Made by a program: the position numbers and the translations under genes. A stretch of 64,000 nt of DNA, from the NCBI RefSeq assembly GCF_054482525.1, contig NZ_CM137006.1, one strand, 5' to 3'. The notes beneath the pieces were generated by a model that was not told the DNA's origin, made no database searches, and saw only the letters and a program-made list of their open reading frames with translations. Positions 37,047-57,083 of the stretch are shown here, piece by piece (position 1 is the stretch's first letter; each line of letters starts with the position of its first letter).

Positions 37047-38399
37047 ATGAGTTCTTTAAGTCAGGCTGCGAGCAGTGTGGAAAAACGCACGAATGCTCGT
37101 TACTGGATAGTGGTGATGTTGTTTATCGTCACATCCTTCAACTACGGCGACCGCGCTACGCTCTCTATCGCCGGTTCGGAAATGGCCAAAGATATCGGCC
37201 TTGATCCTGTGGGAATGGGCTATGTGTTCTCTGCTTTCTCATGGGCTTATGTTATCGGGCAGATCCCTGGTGGCTGGTTGCTGGACCGTTTTGGTTCAAA
37301 ACGCGTCTACTTCTGGTCGATCTTTATCTGGTCGATGTTTACCTTGCTGCAAGGCTTCGTCGATATTTTTAGTGGATTCGGCATTATCGTTGCCCTGTTT
37401 ACGCTGCGCTTCCTGGTCGGGCTTGCTGAAGCGCCATCTTTCCCCGGTAACAGTCGCATTGTAGCGGCCTGGTTTCCGGCGCAGGAAAGGGGAACGGCGG
37501 TGTCGATTTTTAACTCCGCTCAATACTTCGCAACGGTGATCTTCGCGCCGATTATGGGCTGGCTGACGCATGAAGTGGGCTGGTCACACGTCTTTTTCTT
37601 TATGGGCGGTCTGGGCATTGTCATCAGCTTTATCTGGTTGAAAGTCATCCACGAGCCAAATCAACATCCGGGTGTAAATCAGAAAGAGCTGGAGTACATC
37701 GCTGCGGGTGGCGCGCTGATCAATATGGATCAGCAAAACACCAAAGTTAAAGTACCGTTCAGCGTGAAGTGGGGGCAGATCAAACAGCTGCTCGGGTCAC
37801 GGATGATGATCGGCGTTTATATCGGTCAGTACTGTATCAACGCCCTGACTTACTTCTTTATTACCTGGTTCCCGGTTTATCTGGTGCAGGCGCGCGGGAT
37901 GTCGATTCTTAAAGCGGGCTTTGTGGCTTCCGTTCCGGCGGTTTGCGGTTTTATCGGCGGTGTGCTGGGTGGGATTATTTCCGACTGGCTGATGCGCCGC
38001 ACGGGATCGCTGAACATTGCGCGTAAAACACCGATCGTAATGGGCATGTTGCTGTCGATGGTGATGGTGTTCTGCAACTACGTCAACGTTGAGTGGATGA
38101 TCATCGGCTTTATGGCGCTGGCCTTCTTCGGTAAGGGCATCGGGGCGCTGGGTTGGGCAGTAATGGCAGATACCGCGCCAAAAGAGATCAGCGGTCTTTC
38201 CGGTGGCCTGTTCAACATGTTCGGTAACATTTCTGGCATCGTCACGCCAATCGCAATTGGTTATATCGTTGGCACGACTGGCTCCTTTAATGGGGCGCTG
38301 ATTTATGTTGGTGTTCATGCCTTAATCGCGGTACTGAGCTACCTGGTGCTGGTGGGCGATATCAAGCGTATCGAGCTGAAACCTGTCGCGGGGCAATAA
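37047..38399 (+). CDS. gudP: Glucarate/galactarate transporter (MFS)
   Basis: 450 aa, 12 TM; first gene of gudPXD. Confidence 0.93.
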
Positions 38400-38400
38400 G

Positions 38401-39741
38401 ATGACGACACAATCCAGTCCTGTTATTACTGATATGAAAGTCATTCCGGTCGCCGGGCACGATAGCATGTTGCTTAATATTGGTGGGGCGCATAACGCAT
38501 ATTTCACTCGCAATATTGTGGTACTCACCGATAACGCCGGGCATACCGGCATTGGTGAAGCGCCAGGCGGAGAGGTGATTTATCAGACGCTTGTCGATGC
38601 TATTCCGATGGTTCTGGGCCAGGAAGTTGCGCGCCTGAATAAAGTGGTCCAGCAGGTGCATAAAGGTAATCAGGCCGCCGATTTTGATACCTTCGGTAAA
38701 GGGGCCTGGACCTTTGAATTACGCGTTAACGCCGTGGCGGCGCTGGAAGCCGCCTTGCTTGACCTGCTAGGTAAGGCGCTGAATGTTCCGGTCTGCGAAC
38801 TGTTAGGGCCAGGTAAGCAACGCGAGGCTATTACCGTCCTCGGTTATCTGTTTTATATCGGTGATCGGACCAAAACCGATCTTCCTTATCTGGAAAATAC
38901 GCTGGGCAACCATGAGTGGTATCAGTTGCGCCATCAGAAAGCGATGAACAGCGAAGCCGTTGTGCGTCTGGCGGAAGCCTCACAGGATCGCTACGGCTTT
39001 AAAGATTTCAAACTTAAGGGCGGCGTGTTACCTGGCGAGCAAGAAATCGACACTGTTCGTGCATTGAAGAAACGCTTCCCGGATGCGCGGATTACCGTTG
39101 ATCCCAACGGTGCATGGCTGCTTGATGAAGCCATTTCTTTGTGCAAAGGGCTGAATGATGTTCTTACCTATGCCGAAGATCCATGCGGCGCAGAACAGGG
39201 CTTCTCCGGACGTGAAGTGATGGCGGAGTTTCGGCGGGCGACCGGCTTGCCCGTCGCGACTAACATGATCGCCACCAACTGGCGCGAAATGGGCCATGCG
39301 GTAATGCTCAATGCGGTGGATATTCCACTTGCCGATCCGCATTTCTGGACGCTTTCCGGTGCAGTCCGCGTGGCGCAGCTTTGCGACGACTGGGGGCTGA
39401 CCTGGGGCTGCCATTCCAATAACCACTTTGATATCTCTCTGGCGATGTTTACCCATGTGGGCGCGGCGGCACCGGGTAATCCCACCGCTATCGATACCCA
39501 CTGGATTTGGCAGGAGGGCGATTGTCGCCTGACCCGAAATCCGCTGGAGATTAAAAACGGAAAAATTGCCGTTCCTGATGCGCCCGGTCTGGGCGTGGAA
39601 CTGGACTGGGAACAGGTACAAAAGGCACATGAGGCCTATAAACGTCTGCCTGGCGGTGCGCGTAACGACGCAGGCCCGATGCAGTACCTGATCCCCGGCT
39701 GGACCTTTGACCGTAAACGTCCCGTTTTCGGCCGTCATTGA
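38401..39741 (+). CDS. gudX: Glucarate dehydratase-related protein (enolase superfamily paralog)
   Basis: 446 aa; paralog of downstream gudD. Confidence 0.92.
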
Positions 39742-39761
39742 TTCTGAAAAAGGACATAAAT

Positions 39762-41102
39762 ATGAGTTCTCAATTTACGACGCCTGTTGTTACTGAAATG
39801 CAGGTCATCCCGGTGGCGGGCCATGACAGTATGCTGATGAATCTGAGTGGTGCACACGCACCGTTCTTCACGCGTAATATTGTGATTATCAAAGATAATT
39901 CTGGTCACACCGGGGTAGGGGAAATTCCCGGCGGCGAGAAAATCCGTAAAACGCTGGAAGATGCGATTCCGCTAGTGGTGGGTAAAACGCTGGGTGAATA
40001 CAAAAACGTTCTGACGCTGGTGCGTAATACATTTGCCGATCGTGATGCCGGCGGGCGCGGTTTGCAGACATTTGATTTGCGGACCACTATTCATGTGGTT
40101 ACCGGGATAGAAGCGGCAATGCTGGATCTGCTGGGGCAGCATCTGGGGGTTAACGTGGCATCCCTGCTGGGCGATGGTCAACAGCGTAGCGAAGTCGAAA
40201 TGCTCGGTTATCTGTTCTTCGTCGGTAATCGCAAAGCCACACCGCTGCCGTATCAAAGCCAGCCGGATGATAAATGTGACTGGTATCGCCTGCGTCACGA
40301 AGAAGCGATGACGCCGGATGCGGTGGTGCGCCTGGCGGAAGCGGCATATGAAAAATATGGCTTCAACGATTTCAAACTGAAGGGCGGTGTACTGGCCGGG
40401 GAAGAAGAAGCAGAATCTATTGTGGCACTGGCGCAACGCTTCCCACAGGCGCGTATTACCCTCGATCCTAACGGTGCCTGGTCGCTGAACGAAGCGATTA
40501 AAATTGGTAAATACCTGAAAGGTTCGCTGGCTTATGCAGAAGATCCGTGTGGTGCGGAGCAAGGTTTCTCCGGGCGTGAAGTGATGGCAGAGTTCCGTCG
40601 CGCAACTGGCCTGCCGACCGCAACCAATATGATCGCCACCGACTGGCGGCAGATGGGCCATACGCTCTCCCTGCAATCCGTTGATATCCCGCTGGCGGAT
40701 CCGCATTTCTGGACGATGCAAGGTTCGGTACGTGTGGCGCAAATGTGCCATGAATTTGGCCTGACCTGGGGTTCACACTCTAACAACCACTTCGATATTT
40801 CCCTGGCGATGTTTACCCATGTAGCCGCTGCTGCACCGGGTAAAATTACTGCTATTGATACGCACTGGATCTGGCAGGAAGGCAATCAGCGTCTGACCAA
40901 AGAACCGTTTGAGATCAAAGGCGGGCTGGTTCAGGTGCCGCAAAAACCAGGATTGGGCGTAGAAATCGATATGGATCAGGTGATGAAAGCCCACGAGCTG
41001 TATCAGAAACATGGGCTTGGCGCGCGTGACGATGCGATGGGAATGCAGTACCTGATTCCTGGCTGGACGTTCGATAACAAGCGTCCGTGCATGGTGCGTT
41101 AA
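39762..41102 (+). CDS. gudD: D-glucarate dehydratase (enolase superfamily)
   Basis: 446 aa from ATG at 39762 ([14 protein letters not shown]...); ORF track extension upstream overlaps gudX stop. Confidence 0.93.
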
Positions 41103-41115
41103 GACAGAAAACCAA

Positions 41116-41140
41116 AACCGGCTCTGTCAGGAGCCGGTTT
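41116..41140 (+). terminator. Putative gudD terminator
   Basis: AACCGGCTC-tgtcag-GAGCCGGTT 9-bp hairpin with short T-run. Confidence 0.5.
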
Positions 41141-41164
41141 GAGTCTGATGCCAAACGCAAAATT

Positions 41165-41192
41165 GCCTGTTGCGCTACGTATCAGGCCTACA
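41165..41192. repeat. REP unit
   Basis: GCCTGTTGCGCTACGTATCAGGCCTACA. Confidence 0.55.
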
Positions 41193-41228
41193 TTATTTTT
41201 TTAATTCATTGAATTTAATTGGTGTTTA

Positions 41229-41260
41229 TGCCGAATAAGGCGTTAACGCCGCATCCGGCA
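41229..41260. repeat. REP unit
   Basis: TGCCGAATAAGGCGTTAACGCCGCATCCGGCA. Confidence 0.55.
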
Positions 41261-41334
41261 TAAACACAGGCACCTTGTCACCAGTCTGAAACCAGCGTCA
41301 TAAAAAGCCGATTGCTACTCGGCAAGACGGTCCA

Positions 41335-44091
41335 TTACCCTAGAATTTTGCTGGCTTCGCGCGCTACATTATCCATCTCGTCCAACAGTTCCAGCAGCTC
41401 CGGCTCCAAATCTTCTTCTTTAGTACCGCTACGTAGCTGTTGTTCGATCAGTTGGCAGAGATTCTTCATACGCGGCACACCGCTATAGCCGCAACTGCCA
41501 TGCAGTTTATGAATCAAATCAACCAGGCCTTCCGGGTTTTCTCCAACCAGCTGTTCCTCAACTTTGTTGCGAACTTCAGGCAGGAAATCGAGTAACATTT
41601 GCAGCATATCGCGCGCTAAATCGGTTTTTCCTGCTGCCTGGCGTAGTGCCAGTTGCCAGTCGAGGGTCGCATTCGGGTTCACCACAATTTCGTTGACTTC
41701 GGGCGTCACGACGCGAGAGGAAATACCGCTGCCAGGCTTGTAGCGCAACAGCAAATTATGCAATCGCTCTTCTTCAATCGGTTTCGCCAGATAATCGCTC
41801 ATCCCTGCGCCAAGCAGCTTCTCTTTTTGCCCGGCCATTGCATGCGCCGTTACCGCGATAACTGGCGTTTGTTGCTGATGGGGGAGCTGGTGGATGAGTT
41901 CGCAGGCCCGAATGCCGTCCATGTCCGGCATTTGAATATCCATTAAGATCAAATCGAACGGCATCTGTTTCGCCCGTTCAACCGCCTGATGCCCGCTATC
42001 GCAAAGTTCCACATGTTGCACCATATCTTCCAGCAATGCGCCGATAAGTTTCAGGTTAGCGGGGTTGTCATCAACCGCCATGACTGTCATTGCCAGCTTA
42101 CTTTCATCGGTTACAGGCAAAAGCGTGTTTTGTTTGTGATGACAAAATTCCGTCAGGGCAGGTAACAGGCGCGTAGGTGTTAATGGTTTCAGCAGACACG
42201 CGCCGATACCATCTTGCTTAAGTTTTTCAGCATTGACTTGTGCATGGCAAGGAAGTGCCAGCATGAGAAAATCGGTCATCGATACCGCTTTCGCTAATCG
42301 CTCATGTTGCATTGTTAGCGGCTCGCGGAAGGTCACCGCAATGCCTAATAACATCATGTCGTAATGCGCGGGAGGCAGCGCGGAGAACGTTGGGCTATAA
42401 ACCACTTCCAGCGGCGTTTCACTTAAAATATCCAGCGTGCATTGCGCTGCTGCGGAGTTTGGTTCGACATAGGCCAGGCGCTTGCCGGCGAGGCACTGGG
42501 TGGATGGCCCTTCGATAATAATGTTCGGGTTCAGATCGAGATTAATGTGGAACCAGAAAGTTGAACCGCGATTCGGCTGGCTATGGAACGAAATATCGCC
42601 GCCCATTTCATTAACCAGTTTTTGTGTAATCACCAGCCCCAGCCCGGTGCCACCATGACGGCGGGAAATACTGGCATCAGCCTGTCGGAAGGCCTGGAAT
42701 AAGCGCGATTGATCGCGTTCAGGAATACCAATGCCGGTATCCCGAATCTGCACTTCAATCTGAACTTTGGTATTACTCAGCGCACGTTTTTCTACCAGAA
42801 TATCAATGTTGCCATTCTCGGTGAATTTAATTGCATTCCCTACCAGGTTAGTGATGATTTGCTGTAATCGCAGTGGGTCGCCAATTACGTTATCGGGCAC
42901 GTCGCTCTTAATATTGAGCGTCAGTTCCAGCCCTTTATCGTGAGAAGAATGTGCCAGCAGGGTAACTACTTCATCCAGCGTGCTGCGTAGTGGGAATGGA
43001 ATACTTTCCAGAATCAGCTTACCTGCTTCCAGTTTCGAGAAGTCGAGAACATCATTAATAATTGCCAGCAAATTATTTGCCGAACGTTCAATCGTATTCA
43101 GGTGATCGCGCTGCGTTGGTGTTAATTCTGTTTTCAGCGTCAGGCGGGTAAAGCCAATAACACCATTCAGTGGTGTACGCAGCTCGTGTGACATATTTGC
43201 CAAAAACTCGGATTTAATACGCGCCGCTTCCTGGGCGCGCTTTTTCGCCAGATCCAACTCAACGTTCTGAATTTCCATCTGCTCCAGCGTTTCACGCAGA
43301 TCGGACGTCGCCTGGTCGATATTGTGCTGCATCTCTTCGTGATAAGCAGCCAGCGACATTGCCATCGAGTTGATACCGTTTTTCAGCATATCCAGCTCGC
43401 CGAGCATAAATCCTTCCACCCGGCTGTCGAGTTGCCCGCGACGGATGCGGTCGACGGTATTCACCATATTGCGAATCGGACCGGTTACATCGCGCATTAA
43501 GCGCCAGCCAAAAATAAGCGCAATACCGATACAAAACAGCATCATCACGCTGGAAATAAAGATCTCTTTATATTGCTGCAAGCGAACCGATTTAAGATCC
43601 AGCTCAAGCGCAATATATCCCAACATATTTTGACTATTTTTGGCATCGCTACTGGGCGATTCGTCGGGGGAGTAACTCTCAGAAATAATCGGCGTGCGGA
43701 GGATCATAATATCGCCGTCACGAGTGACAGTGAGCTGGCGAGGAAACGGCACGTTGCTGCCGAGCTGCATTGATGAGGGATCAAGATGAAAATTGGAGGT
43801 GACAAAGAGTCGGTTATTTTCATCATAAACCGAAATCGCGCGAACAATATCGGAATGGCGACGATGCAGTACGCTTATTAACTGACCGATAGATTCGCGA
43901 TTTTGCAGGCTCATGCCATATTCAGTAGAAACTGCAAGCGGCTCAATAATGCTGGCACCGGCATCTTCCAGTTGACGCTGCAAGTCGTTATAGCGATGCA
44001 CAACGAAAAAGATACTCAGCAATAAACCAATAAGGACGGTCGGTGCCAGGATCAGAATCATCATGCGTGCGCGCAGGCTGTAGTTGGTCAT
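41335..44091 (-). CDS. barA: Hybrid sensor histidine kinase BarA (partner of UvrY)
   Basis: 918 aa; two N-terminal TM segments, HAMP, HisKA H-box (SHELRTPLN), HATPase, receiver and HPt domains. Confidence 0.95.
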
Positions 44092-44147
44092 GGAGTTCCG
44101 TTATGGGACAATTAAGGTCACACTGTTAAATTGAGAAAGTCTCGCCA

Positions 44148-45449
44148 ATGGCGCAATTCTACTCTGCAAAACGACGCACGACGACGCGTCAGATCATAAC
44201 TGTTTCAGTCAACGACCTCGACTCTTTTGGTCAGGGCGTGGCACGACATAACGGCAAAGCGTTATTTATTCCTGGATTACTGCCACAGGAAAACGCGGAA
44301 GTTACTGTTACTGAAGATAAAAAACAGTACGCCCGCGCTAAAGTCGTGCGCCGGTTAAGCGATAGCCCGGAACGCGAAACGCCACGCTGCCCTCATTTTG
44401 GCGTATGCGGTGGCTGTCAGCAACAACACGCCAGCGTGGATTTACAGCAGCGAAGCAAAAGTGCGGCACTCGCCCGATTAATGAAACACGAAGTCTCTGA
44501 AGTGATCGCCGATGTTCCCTGGGGCTATCGCCGTCGCGCGCGTTTAAGTCTGAACTACTTACCGAAAACACAGCAACTTCAGATGGGGTTTCGCAAAGCG
44601 GGCTCCAGTGACATTGTCGACGTTAAACAATGCCCCATTTTAGTGCCCCAACTTGAAGCATTGCTGCCCAAAGTCAGGGCATGCCTGGGCAGCTTACAAG
44701 CTATGCGCCATCTTGGTCATGTTGAACTGGTACAGGCAACCAGCGGCACGCTGATGATTTTGCGCCATACCGCACCGCTAAGTTCGGCAGATCGCGAAAA
44801 ACTGGAACGCTTTTCGCATTCTGAAGGCCTGGATCTGTATCTCGCCCCCGATAGTGAGATACTCGAAACCGTCTCTGGTGAGATGCCCTGGTATGACTCA
44901 AACGGGTTGCGCTTAACTTTTAGCCCGCGCGATTTTATTCAGGTCAATGCGGGTGTGAACCAAAAAATGGTAGCGCGTGCGTTGGAATGGCTGGATGTAC
45001 AACCTGAAGATCGCGTACTGGATCTGTTCTGCGGTATGGGCAACTTTACACTGCCATTGGCGACACAAGCTGCCAGTGTGGTGGGTGTAGAAGGCGTTCC
45101 GGCGCTGGTGGAAAAAGGCCAGCAGAATGCGCGTCTTAATGGCTTACACAATGTGACGTTTTATCACGAAAATCTTGAAGAAGATGTCACAAAGCAGCCG
45201 TGGGCGAAAAACGGCTTCGATAAAGTGTTGCTGGACCCGGCGCGAGCAGGTGCCGCAGGTGTTATGCAGCAAATTATAAAACTGGAACCTATTCGTATAG
45301 TTTATGTATCCTGTAACCCTGCAACGCTGGCTCGGGATAGCGAAGCGTTATTAAAAGCAGGATATACCATTGCGCGACTGGCGATGCTGGATATGTTCCC
45401 ACACACGGGACATCTGGAATCGATGGTACTTTTCTCGCGCGTTAAATAG
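44148..45449 (+). CDS. rlmD: 23S rRNA m5U1939 methyltransferase (Fe-S, TRAM domain)
   Basis: 433 aa; Cys cluster [11 protein letters not shown]; SAM-MTase C-terminus. Confidence 0.93.
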
Positions 45450-45496
45450 TTACGATTTGCCGATTTCGGCAGGTCTGGTCCCTAAAGGAGAGGACG

Positions 45497-47731
45497 ATGG
45501 TTGCGGTAAGAAGTGCACATATCAATAAGGCTGGTGAATTTGATCCGGAAAAATGGATCGCAAGTCTGGGTATTACCAGCCAGAAGTCGTGTGAGTGCTT
45601 AGCCGAAACCTGGGCGTATTGTCTGCAACAGACGCAGGGGCATCCGGATGCCAGTCTGTTATTGTGGCGTGGTGTTGAGATGGTGGAGATCCTCTCGACA
45701 TTAAGTATGGACATTGACACGCTGCGGGCGGCGCTGTTGTTCCCTCTGGCCGATGCCAACGTAGTCAGCGAAGATGTGCTGCGTGAGAGCGTCGGTAAGT
45801 CGGTCGTTAACCTTATTCACGGCGTGCGTGATATGGCGGCGATCCGCCAGCTGAAAGCGACGCATACCGATTCTGTTTCCTCCGAACAGGTCGATAACGT
45901 TCGCCGGATGTTATTGGCGATGGTCGATGATTTTCGCTGCGTGGTCATCAAACTGGCAGAGCGTATTGCTCATCTGCGCGAAGTAAAAGATGCGCCGGAA
46001 GATGAACGTGTACTGGCGGCAAAAGAGTGCACCAATATCTACGCGCCGTTGGCGAACCGTCTTGGGATTGGGCAACTGAAATGGGAGCTGGAAGATTACT
46101 GCTTCCGTTATCTCCACCCGACCGAATACAAACGCATCGCAAAACTGCTGCATGAACGCCGTCTCGACCGCGAACACTATATCGAAGAGTTTGTCGGCCA
46201 TCTGCGCGCTGAGATGAAAGCTGAAGGCGTTAAAGCTGAAGTGTATGGTCGACCGAAACACATCTACAGCATCTGGCGCAAAATGCAGAAAAAGAACCTC
46301 GCCTTCGATGAGCTGTTTGATGTGCGTGCGGTACGTATTGTCGCCGAGCGTTTACAGGATTGTTATGCCGCACTGGGGATAGTGCACACTCACTATCGCC
46401 ACCTGCCGGATGAGTTTGACGATTACGTCGCTAACCCGAAACCAAACGGTTATCAGTCTATTCATACCGTGGTTCTGGGACCGGGTGGAAAAACCGTTGA
46501 GATCCAAATCCGCACTAAACAGATGCATGAAGATGCAGAGTTGGGTGTTGCTGCGCACTGGAAATATAAAGAGGGCGCGGCAGCTGGCGGCGCACGTTCG
46601 GGACATGAAGACCGGATTGCCTGGCTGCGTAAACTGATTGCGTGGCAGGAAGAGATGGCTGATTCCGGCGAAATGCTCGACGAAGTACGTAGCCAGGTCT
46701 TTGACGACCGGGTGTACGTCTTTACGCCGAAAGGTGATGTCGTTGATTTGCCTGCGGGATCAACACCGCTGGACTTCGCTTACCACATCCACAGTGATGT
46801 CGGACACCGCTGCATCGGGGCAAAAATTGGCGGGCGCATTGTGCCGTTCACCTACCAGCTGCAGATGGGCGACCAGATTGAAATTATCACCCAGAAACAG
46901 CCGAACCCCAGCCGTGACTGGTTAAACCCAAACCTCGGTTACGTCACAACCAGCCGTGGGCGTTCGAAAATTCACGCCTGGTTCCGTAAACAGGACCGTG
47001 ACAAAAACGTTCTGGCTGGGCGGCAAATCCTTGACGACGAGCTGGAACATCTGGGGATCAGCCTGAAAGAAGCAGAAAAACATCTGCTGCCGCGTTACAA
47101 CTTCAATGATGTCGACGAGTTGCTGGCGGCGATTGGTGGCGGGGATATCCGTCTCAATCAGATGGTGAACTTCCTGCAATCGCAATTTAATAAGCCGAGT
47201 GCCGAAGAGCAGGACGCCGCCGCGCTGAAGCAACTTCAGCAAAAAAGCTACACGCCGCAAAACCGCAGTAAAGATAACGGTCGAGTGGTAGTAGAAGGTG
47301 TCGGTAACCTGATGCACCACATCGCGCGCTGCTGCCAGCCGATCCCTGGAGATGAGATTGTCGGCTTCATTACCCAGGGACGCGGTATTTCAGTACACCG
47401 CGCCGATTGCGAACAACTGGCGGAACTGCGCTCCCATGCGCCAGAACGTATTGTTGATGCGGTATGGGGCGAGAGCTACTCCGCCGGATATTCGCTGGTG
47501 GTCCGCGTGGTGGCTAATGATCGTAGTGGGTTGTTACGTGATATCACGACCATTCTCGCCAATGAGCAAGTGAACGTGCTTGGCGTTGCCAGCCGTAGCG
47601 ATACCAAACAGCAACTGGCGACCATCGACATGACCATTGAGATTTACAACCTGCAAGTGCTGGGCCGCGTGCTGGGTAAACTCAACCAGGTGCCGGATGT
47701 TATCGACGCGCGTCGGTTGCACGGGAGTTAG
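45497..47731 (+). CDS. relA: GTP pyrophosphokinase, (p)ppGpp synthetase I
   Basis: 744 aa; sequence recognised. Confidence 0.95.
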   Translation: MVAVRSAHINKAGEFDPEKWIASLGITSQKSCECLAETWAYCLQQTQGHPDASLLLWRGVEMVEILSTLSMDIDTLRAALLFPLADANVVSEDVLRESVGKSVVNLIHGVRDMAAIRQLKATHTDSVSSEQVDNVRRMLLAMVDDFRCVVIKLAERIAHLREVKDAPEDERVLAAKECTNIYAPLANRLGIGQLKWELEDYCFRYLHPTEYKRIAKLLHERRLDREHYIEEFVGHLRAEMKAEGVKAEVYGRPKHIYSIWRKMQKKNLAFDELFDVRAVRIVAERLQDCYAALGIVHTHYRHLPDEFDDYVANPKPNGYQSIHTVVLGPGGKTVEIQIRTKQMHEDAELGVAAHWKYKEGAAAGGARSGHEDRIAWLRKLIAWQEEMADSGEMLDEVRSQVFDDRVYVFTPKGDVVDLPAGSTPLDFAYHIHSDVGHRCIGAKIGGRIVPFTYQLQMGDQIEIITQKQPNPSRDWLNPNLGYVTTSRGRSKIHAWFRKQDRDKNVLAGRQILDDELEHLGISLKEAEKHLLPRYNFNDVDELLAAIGGGDIRLNQMVNFLQSQFNKPSAEEQDAAALKQLQQKSYTPQNRSKDNGRVVVEGVGNLMHHIARCCQPIPGDEIVGFITQGRGISVHRADCEQLAELRSHAPERIVDAVWGESYSAGYSLVVRVVANDRSGLLRDITTILANEQVNVLGVASRSDTKQQLATIDMTIEIYNLQVLGRVLGKLNQVPDVIDARRLHGS

Positions 47732-47740
47732 TCTTACATA

Positions 47741-47781
47741 GCTGGATATGGCGTCAGCCGTATCCAGCGATATCTTTTACT
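47741..47781 (+). terminator. Putative relA-distal hairpin / terminator
   Basis: GCTGGATA-12 nt loop-TATCCAGC followed by U-rich GATATCTTTT. Confidence 0.4.
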
Positions 47782-47826
47782 CGAAGGTATTACACCTGAC
47801 AGACCCGCAATTTTCAGGACAATTCA

Positions 47827-48618
47827 ATGAATCAAATCGACCGTTTGCTCACTATTATGCAGCGCCTGCGCGATCCGGAAAACGGCTGCCCGTGGGATAA
47901 AGAGCAGACATTTGCCACCATTGCGCCTTACACCCTTGAAGAAACCTACGAAGTGCTGGACGCCATTGCCCGTGAAGATTTTGACGATCTGCGCGGTGAA
48001 CTCGGCGATCTGCTGTTCCAGGTGGTGTTTTACGCACAAATGGCCCAGGAAGAAGGGCGCTTTGACTTTAATGATATTTGCGCCGCGATCAGCGATAAAT
48101 TAGAACGTCGCCATCCGCATGTTTTTGCTGACAGTTCTGCCGAAAACAGTAGTGAAGTGCTTGCCCGTTGGGAGCAAATCAAAACCGAAGAGCGCGCGCA
48201 GAAAGCGCAGCATTCGGTGCTGGACGATATTCCTCGTAGTTTACCGGCTTTAATGCGTGCGCAAAAAATCCAGAAACGTTGCGCCAACGTTGGTTTTGAC
48301 TGGACGACGCTTGGCCCGGTAGTCGATAAAGTCTACGAAGAGATCGATGAGGTGATGTACGAAGCGCGGCAGGCTGTTGTCGACCAGGCTAAACTGGAGG
48401 AGGAAATGGGTGACCTGCTGTTTGCCACAGTCAATCTGGCTCGTCATTTAGGGACAAAAGCGGAAATCGCATTGCAAAAAGCGAACGAAAAATTCGAGCG
48501 TCGTTTTCGCGAAGTGGAGCGTATTGTTGCCGCGCGTGGACTGGAAATGACAGGTGTTGACCCCGAAACAATGGAAGAAGTCTGGCAACAGGTAAAACGG
48601 CAGGAAATTGATCTCTAA
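47827..48618 (+). CDS. mazG: Nucleoside triphosphate pyrophosphohydrolase MazG
   Basis: 263 aa; tandem MazG domains; immediately follows relA with no mazEF between. Confidence 0.93.
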   Translation: MNQIDRLLTIMQRLRDPENGCPWDKEQTFATIAPYTLEETYEVLDAIAREDFDDLRGELGDLLFQVVFYAQMAQEEGRFDFNDICAAISDKLERRHPHVFADSSAENSSEVLARWEQIKTEERAQKAQHSVLDDIPRSLPALMRAQKIQKRCANVGFDWTTLGPVVDKVYEEIDEVMYEARQAVVDQAKLEEEMGDLLFATVNLARHLGTKAEIALQKANEKFERRFREVERIVAARGLEMTGVDPETMEEVWQQVKRQEIDL

Positions 48619-48630
48619 GGGAATTACGCG

Positions 48631-48674
48631 GTCAAGCGCCATTTGTGTCATTTTTTAAATGACAAGCGCTTGAT
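48631..48674. repeat. Compound inverted repeat 13 nt after mazG stop
   Basis: GTCAAGCGC..TGTCATT-ttttt-AATGACA..GCGCTTGAT; no following U-tract. Confidence 0.5.
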
Positions 48675-48830
48675 TTGCGTCAAAAACATTTACCCCAAAG
48701 GGGCTATTTTCTCACTCCTGATTTCAATAGTGCGCTGGCGAAGAGGAGGGATAATGAAAGTTTGTGGCACAGGTCATGTTCGGGTATACTGCTTTCCCGT
48801 CCTGGTTATTCCATCGTCTTTTCAACCTAA

Positions 48831-50483
<1,653 letters not shown>

Positions 50484-50554
50484 GAAAAAAGTTAGAACGG
50501 CAACGCGTACCCTGGGTACGCGTTGTTTGTCTGGAGTTTCAGTTTAACTAGTGA

Positions 50555-51868
<1,314 letters not shown>

Positions 51869-51887
51869 GTCTGACTTTATCTGATTT

Positions 51888-51918
51888 AAAAATGCCAGCC
51901 TTCGGGCTGGCATTTTTT
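51888..51918. terminator. Bidirectional intrinsic terminator between convergent eno and ygcG
   Basis: AAAAATGCCAGCC-ttcg-GGCTGGCATTTTTT: perfect stem flanked by A-run and T-run. Confidence 0.8.
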
Positions 51919-51927
51919 ATGGTTGAG

Positions 51928-52800
51928 TTACCAGCGACCGGACGCGCCGCCACCGCCAGAAGAACCGCCACCACCGCTAAATCCGCCGCCACTTGAGCCG
52001 CCACCGGAACCGCTGTTGTCTGAATGATAACTTCTACCAGATGCTTTTTTCTGAAGTACACATAAACAGGTAAAGACCATAATGGTGGTGAAAGTAAAAA
52101 AGAAGAAAAATACAGCAATGGAAAAAGTTTTATCGGAGAACAGGAATAAATCTAAAAGATAGATTGCTGAAATACAGACACTGCTTTTACATGCGCGACA
52201 AAAATTACTGCCTTGATGAAAAAACCAGAAAGGGAAGAACATCACTGCAAATACCCAAAAAATAGCAAAGTAGTAATGATCGCTGGAAGACGCTGATTCA
52301 CTTTCTGAAGGATTAGCCGAATATTGGTGTTGTGAAGTGAGTTGGTTATTCAAAGCGATTATAGCTAACTCTAATCCCTTAGCTAATTTTTGTTGTTTAA
52401 ATGCGGGTATCATGTTGCTACGGATGATATCTCCAGCCAGAGCATCGGTTACCTTTTCTTCCAGCCCATAACCTACCTGGATGCGGACAGTGCGATCCGA
52501 CCAGGCAACAATGATCAGTATCCCATCATTGCGTTTGGCATCTCCTAAACGCCAATTGTTAAAAACCCTTGTAGCATATTGTTCAATTGTCTCGTCTTTG
52601 GTTGTGGGAATAATTAATACAGCAATTTGTACTTGGGTATTATTGAAAATAGATTCTAACTTGTACGTCAGTTCTTTCTTTTCTTGTGAGTTTAAGCTAC
52701 TCGTAAGATCCGTAACTTGTTGCTGTAATTGTGGGACAATAGTTGGTTGGGCTGCAACAAAGGAACACACGAATGTGAATATTAGTATGAAATAGCGCAT
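51928..52800 (-). CDS. ygcG: TPM-domain membrane protein with Gly/Ser-rich C-terminal tail
   Basis: 290 aa from ATG at 52800; signal peptide, TPM domain, TM helix, [16 protein letters not shown] tail; ORF track extension upstream probably spurious. Confidence 0.8.
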
Positions 52801-53093
52801 TATAAATGTCTCATTAAATCTGGATAAATAAATTGACGGCGGCATCGGTAATTTGAGATTCGTTATAATTAAAAACGAACACAGAAAAAATAAGTATAAT
52901 TTTGGTGAATGTTTTTGACATGATTAAATCCCTTTACTTTATTTATTTCTGACATAATACGTTACCCCCTTTTATTATTAACGATCTGTTTCTCATTTTT
53001 CTTTAAACCTGCCTGTAACAGAATGTTAATAAGACATGATTGTTGTGGCAGGATCTGCAATAATTAACAATTATCCACTTCACAGAGAATGCT

Positions 53094-53765
53094 ATGCAGT
53101 ACCCGATTAACGAGATGTTCCAGACCCTGCAAGGTGAGGGTTACTTTACCGGCGTCCCCGCCATTTTTATTCGTTTACAGGGATGCCCGGTTGGCTGTGC
53201 CTGGTGCGACACCAAACACACCTGGGAAAAGCTTGAGGATCGGGAAGTTTCCCTTTTCAGCATTCTGGGTAAAACGAAAGAGAGTGATAAGTGGGGAGCA
53301 GCAAGCAGTGAAGACTTACTCGCAGTCATCGGTCGTCAGGGATACACCGCGCGTCACGTGGTGATTACGGGTGGTGAACCTTGTATTCATGATTTGCTGC
53401 CACTGACTGACCTGCTCGAAAAGAACGGTTTCAGTTGTCAGATAGAAACCAGCGGTACTCATGAAGTGCGTTGTACGCCGAATACCTGGGTCACCGTGTC
53501 GCCAAAGCTAAATATGCGTGGTGGTTATGAAGTATTGTCGCAAGCCCTGGAGCGAGCTAACGAAATTAAACACCCAGTTGGACGTGTACGTGATATCGAA
53601 GCACTGGATGAATTGCTTGCGACGCTGACCGATGATAAACCGCGAGTCATTGCACTGCAGCCGATTAGCCAAAAGGATGATGCCACACGTTTGTGCATTG
53701 AAACTTGCATTGCGCGTAACTGGCGTTTGTCGATGCAAACACATAAATATTTAAATATTGCCTGA
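53094..53765 (+). CDS. queE: 7-carboxy-7-deazaguanine synthase (radical SAM)
   Basis: 223 aa; CxxxCxxC-type cluster motif CPVGCAWC. Confidence 0.92.
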   Translation: MQYPINEMFQTLQGEGYFTGVPAIFIRLQGCPVGCAWCDTKHTWEKLEDREVSLFSILGKTKESDKWGAASSEDLLAVIGRQGYTARHVVITGGEPCIHDLLPLTDLLEKNGFSCQIETSGTHEVRCTPNTWVTVSPKLNMRGGYEVLSQALERANEIKHPVGRVRDIEALDELLATLTDDKPRVIALQPISQKDDATRLCIETCIARNWRLSMQTHKYLNIA

Positions 53766-54039
53766 TTACACATTTATATGCGTTATAAATGGGTGGAACC
53801 TGTAAAGACTTCCACTCATTTATATTTTTTGTCGCCTCTGAAAACTCATCCATTTTGCCCATTCCGGACTAATCATTGTCATTCTCTACAAATTCTGTGG
53901 CGTTAATTTTTCTCTGGGGTGAAAATTATTGCGGTAAAGTTTGGTAGATTTTAGTCGGTATAGGATTACTTTAAATATTTAGCTTTTCAATCAATGAATT
54001 AAGTGCTCTTTAACATAATGGATGTGTTGTTTGTGTGAT

Positions 54040-54104
54040 ACTGTAAAGTTGGTAGATTGTGACTGGCTTAAAAAATCATTAATTAATAATAGGTTATGTT
54101 TAGA
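54040..54104 (+). promoter_or_regulatory. AT-rich CRISPR leader
   Basis: TTAATTAATAATAGGTTATGTTTAGA immediately precedes the first repeat. Confidence 0.5.
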
Positions 54105-54255
54105 GAGTTCCCCGCGCGAGCGGGGATAAACCGAAAACCACGACCTGGCGATCGGCGTGCTGGATGAGTTTCCCGCGCGAGCGGGGATAAACCGGATAGG
54201 TGTTACACATATGACCAGGCACTGGCGAGTTCCCCGCGTCAGCGGGGATAACCAT
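54105..54255 (+). CRISPR. Minimal type I-E CRISPR array: 3 repeats (last degenerate), 2 spacers of 32 bp
   Basis: Repeats GAGTTCCCCGCGCGAGCGGGGATAAACCG (54105-54133), GAGTTTCCCGCGCGAGCGGGGATAAACCG (54166-54194), degenerate GAGTTCCCCGCGTCAGCGGGGATAACC.. (54227-54255); spacers 54134-54165 and 54195-54226. Confidence 0.85.
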
Positions 54256-54268
54256 TCAGGTATGTTCA

Positions 54269-54292
54269 GGCCGGGCAGTTTCCCGCCCGGCC
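54269..54292. terminator. GC-rich hairpin between CRISPR array and ygcE stop
   Basis: GGCCGGGC-agtttccc-GCCCGGCC; no clear U-tract on either strand. Confidence 0.35.
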
Positions 54293-54300
54293 TTCCTCAC

Positions 54301-55779
54301 TTACGCATTCGACCAGCTCTGGATCGAATCTTCATTCCCCAGCTCACCATGCATCACTTCATACGATTTTTTCAGGATCACATCAGTGTGCTTGGTTAGG
54401 TCTTTGAAAATGCCTTTATTCATCGCGTCGTAGCGTTTGGCATTGCTCTCAACAGGCATAAAGATATCTTTCACGCGAACCATTTTGTCGACAGCCGTTG
54501 CGTAATCCGGGTATAGCCCCAGACCTACCGCCGTATTAATCGCTGCCCCCAGACTTGCACAACCATTAATGGCGTTACGGCGTGCCGGAAGGTTGAACAC
54601 GTCGGCAAAAATCTGCATAAACAGATCGCTGTTCGAACCGCCGCCAGTAATGATCACATGCTTTGCAAAGTGATTCATTTCATTACACATATTGTCGTAA
54701 TTGTTCTTCAGCGTCAGCGCCACGCTTTCCAGTATCGAACGATATATCCATGCGTAATCCATGCTGGAATCAAAGCCGATCATAATCCCGCGTTTGTACG
54801 GTTCCCACGGATTGGTCAGCCAGTCCAGCACCGTCATCAGCCCATTACAGCCAGGTGGCACACTAGAGGCTTTCTTGTTGAGTAAATCTTCCGGTGAAAG
54901 ATCCTGCGCCCTGGCATCCTGAATTAACGACTCGCCTAACATGTCGCGTAGCCAGCTCACCGTCCACATGCCTTTGCGAATACCGTAACCTTCATACAGC
55001 AAGGTTTGCGGAATAGAAGACATAATCGGCCAGTACGCTACCGGATCTTTCGGCAGTGCTTTACCGTTCATCATCAGCGCGATGTAGGTGCCAAGAGAAA
55101 TCACCGCCGTTTCATCATCCAGTAATCCGGCTCCCAGAGCTTCTACCGGTTTATCACTGGTGGTACAAACAACCGGCAGCCCTGCTGGGAAATGTGTCGC
55201 CAGCGCGGCTTGAGGAGTGATATGCCCAAGAACAGTGCCCGGCATTTGCACATCAAACAGCATATGACGGGGGATATTAAACTTCTCCATGACTGCGGCA
55301 TCTTCACTCCATGCCCAGGTCTTATAATCCACCGGCCACTGACCAAAATAGTTGGCGATATTATCTTTAAACTCGCCGGTTAAGCGATGCGTCAGATAAC
55401 CTGAAAAAGAGGTGACATAGGCCACGTCAGGATTCGTATGTTCGTAAGGGCGTGTAACGCGTGCATCCTGCCAGCTGATCAACGGTGCAGCTGGCGTGCC
55501 ATCGGCTTTCAATAACGCACGGCAGCAACGGATGGATCCCAGACCAATACCGACAATATCGTCTTTATTCCCGGCAAACTGACTCATCAAATCGTGACCG
55601 GCAAAACATAATGATGCCCATAAATCGTCGTCAGGATGTTCTGCAGTATCGGCATCTGGCGTGTGCATCGGCTGTAATAAGCCTTTGCCTTCGCAAACCA
55701 CGTTACCTTCCAGATCGTACATCACCACTTTTGTGCTCTGACTTCCGCCATCAATCCCTATGATGTATTTTTTCGACAT
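54301..55779 (-). CDS. ygcE: FGGY-family carbohydrate kinase (glycerol kinase-like)
   Basis: 492 aa; FGGY N- and C-terminal domains; 26 nt after yqcE stop. Confidence 0.88.
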   Translation of the reverse strand: MSKKYIIGIDGGSQSTKVVMYDLEGNVVCEGKGLLQPMHTPDADTAEHPDDDLWASLCFAGHDLMSQFAGNKDDIVGIGLGSIRCCRALLKADGTPAAPLISWQDARVTRPYEHTNPDVAYVTSFSGYLTHRLTGEFKDNIANYFGQWPVDYKTWAWSEDAAVMEKFNIPRHMLFDVQMPGTVLGHITPQAALATHFPAGLPVVCTTSDKPVEALGAGLLDDETAVISLGTYIALMMNGKALPKDPVAYWPIMSSIPQTLLYEGYGIRKGMWTVSWLRDMLGESLIQDARAQDLSPEDLLNKKASSVPPGCNGLMTVLDWLTNPWEPYKRGIMIGFDSSMDYAWIYRSILESVALTLKNNYDNMCNEMNHFAKHVIITGGGSNSDLFMQIFADVFNLPARRNAINGCASLGAAINTAVGLGLYPDYATAVDKMVRVKDIFMPVESNAKRYDAMNKGIFKDLTKHTDVILKKSYEVMHGELGNEDSIQSWSNA

Positions 55780-55805
55780 GATTTTTCTCCTGTAATTTTC
55801 TGGAC

Positions 55806-57083
55806 TTACTTGCTGCTAGCCATAGCAGGGGCGCTATCAGCAGTACGAATTTTTTGGAACAGCAAAAAGGTAAAGACGATCACCATGGCAAGCGCCGCCA
55901 TGCCCATCAGCCACATATTGCGGTAGGCTTCTGCTGCGGGCAGGGTGTCTTGCCAGTGGCCGATAATTGGGTAAACGAAGACATCCGGCAGGAATCCAAT
56001 CACCGAACAAATACCTACCGTGGTGCCCATAATGTAAGACGGTGTTCTCGCTTCGCCAGGGCAGGCCCAGTACAGCCCGCGTGAGGCGTAACAGGTGAAT
56101 CCCAGAAGTAAAATCAGACCAATCCCCATCGCGACCGATTGCGGGTTAGAGTTCGTGATGAGCAGGGCAGTTAACGCCAGCAGGCCGAGTACGGAAAGGA
56201 TTTGGATCACGCGGGTAGGGGATTTCACTTTGCTGTAAGTGGTGATAATGCCGCCAAGCGGACCGCACAGTGCGCGGAAGATTTTGTTGATCACAATCCC
56301 CATGTAGCTCGCCGCCACCAGCGACATACCGTACATTTCGGTCAGATAGTTGGTGGAGTAACTCAGAATGGCGTAGATGGTGAAGACACCAAAAATCACC
56401 ATGCTGCAATACCAGGTGGTGCTGATGCGCAAAACGGCCAGGATGTCGCTAAGCTGGAATGACTGTTTTTCTTCGTTATTGGTATTGCGTAGGTTGTTGT
56501 TATCGCTAACAAAAAACCAACACAAAATGCCCAGCAGAATGTAAACCACACTGTAGATGATAATGACCGTTTTCAGGCTGGCGCTGTCATCCGGTGCAAA
56601 GCGAGAAAAGACCCACATGGTAAACACCGCCAGCGACATTACACCGACGCCGCGCAGCCCTTCCATCCAGCCCATAATTTTCCCTTGCTCGCTATGATCG
56701 CCCAGCAACGATGCGGCTTTAATCGACACCGACCACAGCATTAAAATCGTCGTTATCGCAAAGGCGACCTGAATACAGAGCATTACCCACAGCGGTGGAT
56801 ATGTTGCCATTAACAGACCCAGTAATCCGGTAATGATCATCGCGGAAGTAATCATTTTGCGGTGTGAAAATTTATCGGCAATAACGCCGCTGGGGGCATA
56901 AAGAATAATAGCCGCAATACCAAAGGTACTCATTATTAAACCTATCTCGGTATTGCTGAATCCCATAAATTTTGCCATGGGAATTTGATAAATATAACGT
57001 AAATAAGCCAGGTCGAAACTAACGCCGCCGCTAAAACTAATTATCGCGAGGGTTATCCAACGGCGATATGAGTTGTGTTGCAT
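55806..57083 (-). CDS. yqcE: MFS transporter
   Basis: 425 aa; 12 TM; first gene of yqcE-ygcE. Confidence 0.88.
   Translation of the reverse strand: MQHNSYRRWITLAIISFSGGVSFDLAYLRYIYQIPMAKFMGFSNTEIGLIMSTFGIAAIILYAPSGVIADKFSHRKMITSAMIITGLLGLLMATYPPLWVMLCIQVAFAITTILMLWSVSIKAASLLGDHSEQGKIMGWMEGLRGVGVMSLAVFTMWVFSRFAPDDSASLKTVIIIYSVVYILLGILCWFFVSDNNNLRNTNNEEKQSFQLSDILAVLRISTTWYCSMVIFGVFTIYAILSYSTNYLTEMYGMSLVAASYMGIVINKIFRALCGPLGGIITTYSKVKSPTRVIQILSVLGLLALTALLITNSNPQSVAMGIGLILLLGFTCYASRGLYWACPGEARTPSYIMGTTVGICSVIGFLPDVFVYPIIGHWQDTLPAAEAYRNMWLMGMAALAMVIVFTFLLFQKIRTADSAPAMASSK

Follow-up and report, generated by a model that had tools for sequence, protein, structure and literature searches.

The relA-mazG interval of the window holds no mazEF

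In Escherichia coli K-12, the mazE and mazF genes lie between relA and mazG, which raises the question of what occupies this interval in a strain that lacks them, and whether their absence reflects loss, engineering or a state in which they were never present. The stretch of DNA that we analyzed, 64 kb long and hereafter called the window, poses this question because relA appeared to be followed directly by mazG. The original prediction, made from the sequence, offered three readings of this arrangement: that the lineage is naturally mazEF-negative, that the state is ancestral, or that mazEF was deleted by engineering. Its coordinates for the relA stop, the mazG start and the 95-bp gap between them were all reproduced from the sequence and the list of ORFs. 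The locus comprises the following features:

45497-47731, + strand: relA (GTP diphosphokinase), 744 aa, stop codon TAG at 47729-47731; from the ORF list and NCBIfam NF008124
47732-47826, + strand: relA-mazG spacer, mazEF-empty allele, 95 bp; from the sequence and the junction query
47732-47792, + strand: allele-specific segment, 61 bp; from the alignment with K-12
47741-47768, + strand: hairpin, apparently REP-derived, with a 12-bp stem and a GUCA loop, followed by GATATCTTTT
47769-47791, + strand: second, weaker predicted stem-loop adjoining the first hairpin, 9 pairs, A/U-rich, seen in the minimum-free-energy structure only
47793-47826, + strand: mazG-proximal leader common to both alleles, 34 bp, 100% identical to positions 2530-2563 of the K-12 locus (L001)
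47827-48618, + strand: mazG (nucleoside triphosphate pyrophosphohydrolase), 263 aa; from the ORF list, TIGR00444 and NF007113

The identifications of relA and mazG are secure. The relA product matches the NCBIfam equivalog NF008124 over its full length with 1675 bits, and relA is also annotated in the matching genomes; the mazG product scores 415 bits against TIGR00444 and 369 bits against NF007113, well over the cut-offs. The gene order, with rlmD upstream of relA and pyrG downstream of mazG, is the same as in K-12, and the prediction that the flanking genes have K-12 lengths held for rlmD (433 aa), relA (744 aa), mazG (263 aa), pyrG (545 aa) and eno (432 aa).

Within the 95-bp gap, the sole ORF of at least 30 aa is one of 50 aa (47748-47900) that is out of frame and extends into mazG, and neither the ORF list nor tblastn revealed a mazEF-like ORF hidden in the spacer. 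When K-12 MazF was used as a tblastn query, the best match in the 64-kb window had an E value of 0.37, with no suitable ORF in 47732-47826, and for K-12 MazE the best E value in the window was 3.3. The claim that mazEF is absent between relA and mazG is thus borne out by the size of the gap, by its coding content and by the blank tblastn searches. The promoter/operator palindrome of mazEF is likewise missing from the spacer, as a blastn-short search against K-12 L001 1801-2600 gave no match in 1833-1909. At a permissive threshold, no Rfam family was found in 47500-48000, and the one promoter-like match, at 47796-47823, is weak and of a type no more frequent than in shuffled sequence. The 34-bp leader carries a Shine-Dalgarno AGGA at 47816-47819, 7 nt upstream of the mazG ATG, and TTTCAGGA, the mazG ribosome-binding site, is intact in the window and conserved across genera.

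The two alleles differ by replacement

In K-12 AG100, relA is followed by 77 bp, mazE, mazF, 70 bp and mazG, so that the K-12 gene order given in the original prediction was right and the relA-mazG interval there measures 731 bp, not 95. The relA and mazG genes of the two strains are orthologous, with ~97% DNA identity. Homology to K-12 stops directly after the relA stop and restarts at CACCTGACAG, from which the last 34 bp up to the mazG ATG, ribosome-binding site included, are identical. In the alignment, 61 bp of the window (47732-47792), bearing the hairpin, stand in place of a 697-bp K-12 cassette that consists of the mazEF promoter/operator region with its palindromic operator, mazE, mazF and 36 bp 3′ of mazF. 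A blastn-short comparison of the 61-bp segment with the K-12 cassette, at word size 7, gave no significant match and no remnant, and neither direct repeats nor target duplications were seen where the replacement begins and ends. A similarity of ~60% between 47770-47792 and the 36 bp 3′ of K-12 mazF was considered and discarded as weak; since blastn-short gave it no support, we took 47792/47793 as the right breakpoint. The difference between the alleles is thus an exchange of 61 bp for 697 bp and not a simple indel or a clean deletion.

The mazEF-free junction is a common natural polymorphism

We searched 5426 complete E. coli genomes with a 751-bp query spanning the junction, which matched in 5425, either as a single stretch where the annotation shows relA and mazG alone or as two stretches around mazE and mazF. 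A shorter query of 66 bp (47730-47795) was found in 1000 of the 5426 genomes, with an identity of 99% or more in 985, and the K-12 mazEF segment in 4419; these two sets add up to 5419 of the 5425 genomes in which the locus is present. The mazEF-free junction is therefore a common natural polymorphism, seen in roughly a fifth of sequenced E. coli, and this share (18%) describes the database and not a population frequency, the collection being a non-random sample of the species. The suggestion of a natural mazEF-negative lineage is supported by the occurrence of a spacer of the same type in these 1000 genomes.

The strains with the mazEF-free junction include CFT073, ATCC 25922 and PCN033, with 100% identity over the junction segment in CFT073. 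Among mazEF-free E. coli, UTI89, CFT073 and ATCC 25922 share the relA-mazG order with the window, and a 95-bp spacer was shown for CFT073 and ATCC 25922, the latter with two differences from the 95 bp of the window and with TAA as the relA stop codon instead of TAG. Unlike the mazEF-free strains of B2 type, the window comes from a phylogroup D lineage and has a rare haplotype at the relA 3′ end and mazG. About six genomes have neither an intact mazEF nor the empty allele. In one strain, SW07163 (NZ_CM129852.1, about 1018132-1018879; H40/H110), the match to mazEF is split in two, as if something had been inserted within the cassette.

We give practically no probability to an origin of this junction by engineered deletion of mazEF in the laboratory or by faulty assembly. 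Laboratory deletions of mazEF do exist, in derivatives of MC4100 (bioRxiv 10.1101/048728), but the flanks of the window are 96.8% identical to K-12 and not 100%, its sequence contains no resistance cassette and no FRT-type scar, and the junction recurs at 99% identity or more in about 985 independent natural isolates. Moreover, three wild genomes, each assembled separately, have the same neighbourhood: over 18 kb (38000-56000), SCU-102, PCN033 and 19KM1776 match the window at ~100% identity, and no other genome exceeds 98.6%. The strain belongs to this PCN033/SCU-102 group, PCN033 being a porcine extraintestinal pathogen of phylogroup D (PMC4578781). We thus discard the engineered deletion among the readings first proposed, because the flanks are not those of K-12 and the spacer is identical to that of hundreds of wild isolates.

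A probable decayed REP follows relA

The hairpin announced at 47741-47768 is present, with a stem of 12 pairs and a 4-nt loop, and starts 9 nt past the relA stop. The 95-nt spacer folds with −33.2 kcal/mol, compared with −15.8 ± 2.9 kcal/mol in dinucleotide shuffles (z = −6.1), and the 60 nt downstream of the relA stop reach −28.4 kcal/mol, which describes a stable imperfect palindrome in an intergenic position. The second predicted stem-loop recurs with 8 pairs in a divergent Escherichia (L004, described below). A scan for terminator-like sequences returned one hit, against 0.7 expected from shuffles, in which a short interrupted T-run places 5 T within 8 nt after GATA.

The hairpin can be aligned both to canonical REPs from other parts of the window and to the REPs found after relA in Citrobacter, Klebsiella and Enterobacter. 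The alignment has 9 invariant columns and sets GCTGGATA and CCAGC of the window against GCCGGATA and CCGGC of the consensus; a regular expression for the REP consensus, allowing up to two substitutions, did not match the hairpin. The GTAG tetranucleotide beside a REP palindrome is the site of recognition and cleavage by RAYT. This tetranucleotide precedes the canonical REPs and is found in the divergent Escherichia L004 and in the outgroups, whereas the window reads ATAG. Because ATAG stands in place of GTAG, the hairpin appears, judging from its sequence, to be a decayed REP that is probably no longer mobile. It shares with the REP elements of Enterobacteriaceae the form of a ~30-nt imperfect palindrome in an intergenic 3′ UTR, alignable to canonical copies, and it differs from them in being degenerate (GCTGGATA for GCCGGATA/G), single and outside any BIME.

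Outgroups point to an empty site that never held the cassette

As outgroups, we used 80 Enterobacterales loci from species-representative genomes, a set that does not include E. fergusonii or the named cryptic clades. Both relA and mazG were found in 79 of the 80 loci, mazG following relA in every one; the spacer is no longer than 150 bp in 60 of these 79, with a median of 106 bp. No MazE or MazF homologue was detected within 2.5 kb of mazG in any of the 80 species representatives. Citrobacter, Klebsiella and Enterobacter carry a REP palindrome, GTAGGCCGGATAAGGCG...CCGCCATCCGGC, 6-16 nt after the relA stop and in the same orientation as in the window. Closer to the window, a divergent Escherichia (L004, labelled E. 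coli) differs from it by ~9% in the relA 3′ end and mazG; its spacer is also 95 bp long, is proportionately diverged and carries a more canonical REP, in which all 12 stem pairs are kept despite 5 substitutions, one T-A pair having become C-G by a double change.

E. albertii NBRC 107761 illustrates what loss of the cassette in place looks like. Its relA-mazG spacer (L006 2240-2500) measures 261 bp, has no intact mazE or mazF and has received two inserted REPs where these genes would have stood. Three pieces of the cassette are recovered from it by blastn-short: from the mazEF promoter palindrome 30 bp (90% identity), from the 3′ coding sequence of mazF 15 bp (100%) and from the spacer between mazF and mazG 58 bp (94.8%). 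Read in this way, the sequence represents a decayed mazEF, that is, a true secondary loss, and mazEF would once have stood at this locus in the E. albertii lineage. The window resembles E. albertii in having no intact mazE or mazF between relA and mazG, but the ends of the cassette are retained in E. albertii, while the spacer of the window keeps none of it and has no local similarity to it beyond the shared 34 bp.

These comparisons bear on whether mazEF was lost from the window by in-place deletion of a K-12-type cassette. Decay of mazEF at this locus does occur, as E. albertii NBRC 107761 demonstrates, but the 61 bp of the window are wholly absent from K-12, which implies a replacement, they contain no remnant of the cassette at word size 7, and they are homologous to the spacers of the outgroups. 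In-place deletion is effectively refuted by these three observations, and we regard it as very improbable. The allele of the window is instead, in all likelihood, a natural allele of ancestral, "empty-site" type. Since it lacks the remnants that in-place loss left behind in E. albertii, we are also highly confident that it derives from a state that never held the cassette. The ancestral state named in the original prediction is accordingly supported by the adjacency of relA and mazG in the outgroups, by a REP hairpin at the corresponding position and by the absence of remnants from the spacer. Two considerations weigh against the ancestral reading: E. albertii has a decayed mazEF at this very locus, polarity within E. 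coli being unreadable from one outgroup, and, REPs being mobile, their presence at a matching position in several genera could be convergent.

The age of the insertion may be gauged from the E. albertii scar. Because this scar has diverged by about as much as is typical of the split between E. coli and E. albertii, the insertion of mazEF would be old, having taken place at or before that split or having been transferred soon after it, and both alleles would be long-lived.

Flanking sequences are mosaic

Compared with four other E. coli, the window has 0-6 SNPs per 300 bp, rising to mostly 5-20 across 47148-48647, a region centred on the junction with a SNP density several-fold above that of the surrounding 6 kb. 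The haplotype of 47400-48150 was found at 99% identity or more in only 3 of the 5426 genomes, and some positions in 47148-48647 are unlike every Escherichia and Citrobacter sequence compared. Variable sites in the flanks form mosaic blocks common to mazEF-positive strains, mazEF-free strains and divergent Escherichia. Of the two nearest non-identical relatives inspected at the locus, E300010 has mazEF and O169:H41 does not, and the same variation exists within phylogroup B2, where NRG857c has relA-linked mazEF and CFT073 lacks it (PMC7232551). Evidently, the relA-mazG locus has been exchanged by homologous recombination.

It is possible, though we consider it unlikely, that the ancestors of this strain had mazEF and lost it by allelic replacement, receiving the spacer of a mazEF-free donor together with flanking DNA. 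The local rise in SNP density centred on the junction would fit such an event, as would the mosaic blocks, which are distributed irrespective of the mazEF status of the strains, and the differences in mazEF status between the close relatives E300010 and O169:H41 and within B2. No donor haplotype was found, however, the three genomes just mentioned being the only ones at this level of identity over 47400-48150, and the mosaic could equally represent imports that left mazEF status unchanged. Allelic replacement would describe only the path by which the lineage came to its spacer; the allele could be ancestral all the same.

Other insertions at relA-mazG and neighbouring loci

Several outgroup spacers contain other genes. 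In Superficieibacter sp. 1612_C1 (L019, about 1674-2286), a parDE toxin-antitoxin pair lies in a 935-bp relA-mazG spacer, its ParD matching TIGR02606 with 86.5 bits and its ParE matching PF05016 with E = 1.5e-11 and no NCBIfam model. The 1788-bp spacer of Buttiauxella agrestis ATCC 33320 (L043, about 841-2428) holds a gene for Hcp/TssD (TIGR03344, 189.7 bits) together with an ORF of 261 aa and a hydrophobic ORF of 109 aa, neither of which has an NCBIfam match; this content looks like an orphan T6SS islet of hcp, effector and immunity genes. A hydrophobic ORF of 112 aa, similar to that of B. agrestis, is found in the 950-bp spacer of Superficieibacter electus (L017, about 2066-2404). With mazEF in Escherichia, parDE in Superficieibacter and the hcp islet in Buttiauxella, there is a hint, too slight among 80 species to establish the point, that small selfish or defence cassettes might insert repeatedly between relA and mazG, where the resident REP palindrome could serve as a target or recombination substrate. 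In Pectobacterium, Brenneria and Samsonia (L063-L065, L068, L070, L073), the spacers measure 336-418 bp without a convincing ORF and could contain repeat elements or a small RNA.

Two further regions of the window were noted. Between queE and ygcE (54105-54255), a repeat search found a small CRISPR remnant of type I-E style, with three 29-nt repeats (GAGTTCCCCGCGCGAGCGGGGATAAACCG) at 61-nt spacing and hence two spacers; the arrays annotated at the corresponding place in relatives are longer (273 and 578 bp). Tandem Repeats Finder returned nothing in 51800-57000. On the 3′ side of eno (51928-53094), the window has a single ygcG, where relatives annotate an extra frameshifted fragment, and at the ygcG position of ATCC 25922 and strain 51489 (L086 and L087, 13997-17553) there are three genes of the YgcG/TPM family and one of the LemA family.

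Discussion

The mazEF-free relA-mazG locus is already known from the literature, and the present finding is real but ordinary. In many strains lacking mazEF, for example UTI89, relA-mazG has been described as an "undisturbed bicistronic operon" (Fraikin, Goormaghtigh & Van Melderen 2020, PMC7167474), CFT073 has been reported to lack relA-linked mazF (PMC7232551), and mazEF is regarded as a horizontally acquired module between core genes, inserted into an existing operon (PMC5120126). Our analysis contributes the exact positions of the breakpoints, the recognition of an apparently decayed REP within the empty site, a comparison with the scar of E. albertii and the observation that the flanks are mosaic.

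We propose the following history. In Enterobacterales, mazG would by default come next after relA, separated from it by a short spacer in which a REP palindrome is often present. In part of Escherichia, a cassette of ~700 bp comprising a promoter, mazE and mazF would have been inserted, displacing the REP-bearing 61 bp. Both alleles would then have segregated in E. coli, moving between lineages via homologous recombination in the flanks.

This history would have consequences for expression. From the sequence and the K-12 literature, relA and mazG of the window would form a two-gene operon, most likely the bicistronic relA-mazG operon of Fraikin et al. In such an operon, transcripts started at the relA promoters would read through the REP hairpin into mazG, whose translation would use its own AGGA ribosome-binding site, and the hairpin might act as a 3′ stabiliser or a partial terminator of the relA message. 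In K-12, the mazEF promoters co-transcribe mazG, according to Gross et al. (2006) as cited in PMC5120126; these autoregulated promoters, which would feed mazG in K-12, are absent from the window. Translation of relA could also be affected. According to Liang et al. (2015, as cited in PMC12306157), a REP located less than 16 nt from a stop codon makes terminating ribosomes stall, and the upstream gene is then translated less. Since the 9-nt distance of the hairpin from the relA stop is within this 15-nt stalling range, the hairpin could possibly lower RelA translation. Combining these points, one may picture the spacer as a recurrent landing pad for cassettes, at which a swap of alleles alters the expression of relA, a stringent-response gene; we consider this joint reading a long shot. 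If true, mazEF-positive and mazEF-free E. coli would differ in the dosage of RelA and MazG, beyond the presence of MazF.

Much of the mazEF literature, on programmed cell death, persistence and the stress response, is based on K-12, while about a fifth of sequenced E. coli, major extraintestinal pathogens included, have no mazEF at relA-mazG and show what is in all likelihood the ancestral order. For genome annotation, the absence of mazEF from this locus is neither an error nor an engineered deletion. Taken together, these results support the view of mazEF as an accessory insert that is not integral to the stringent-response operon.
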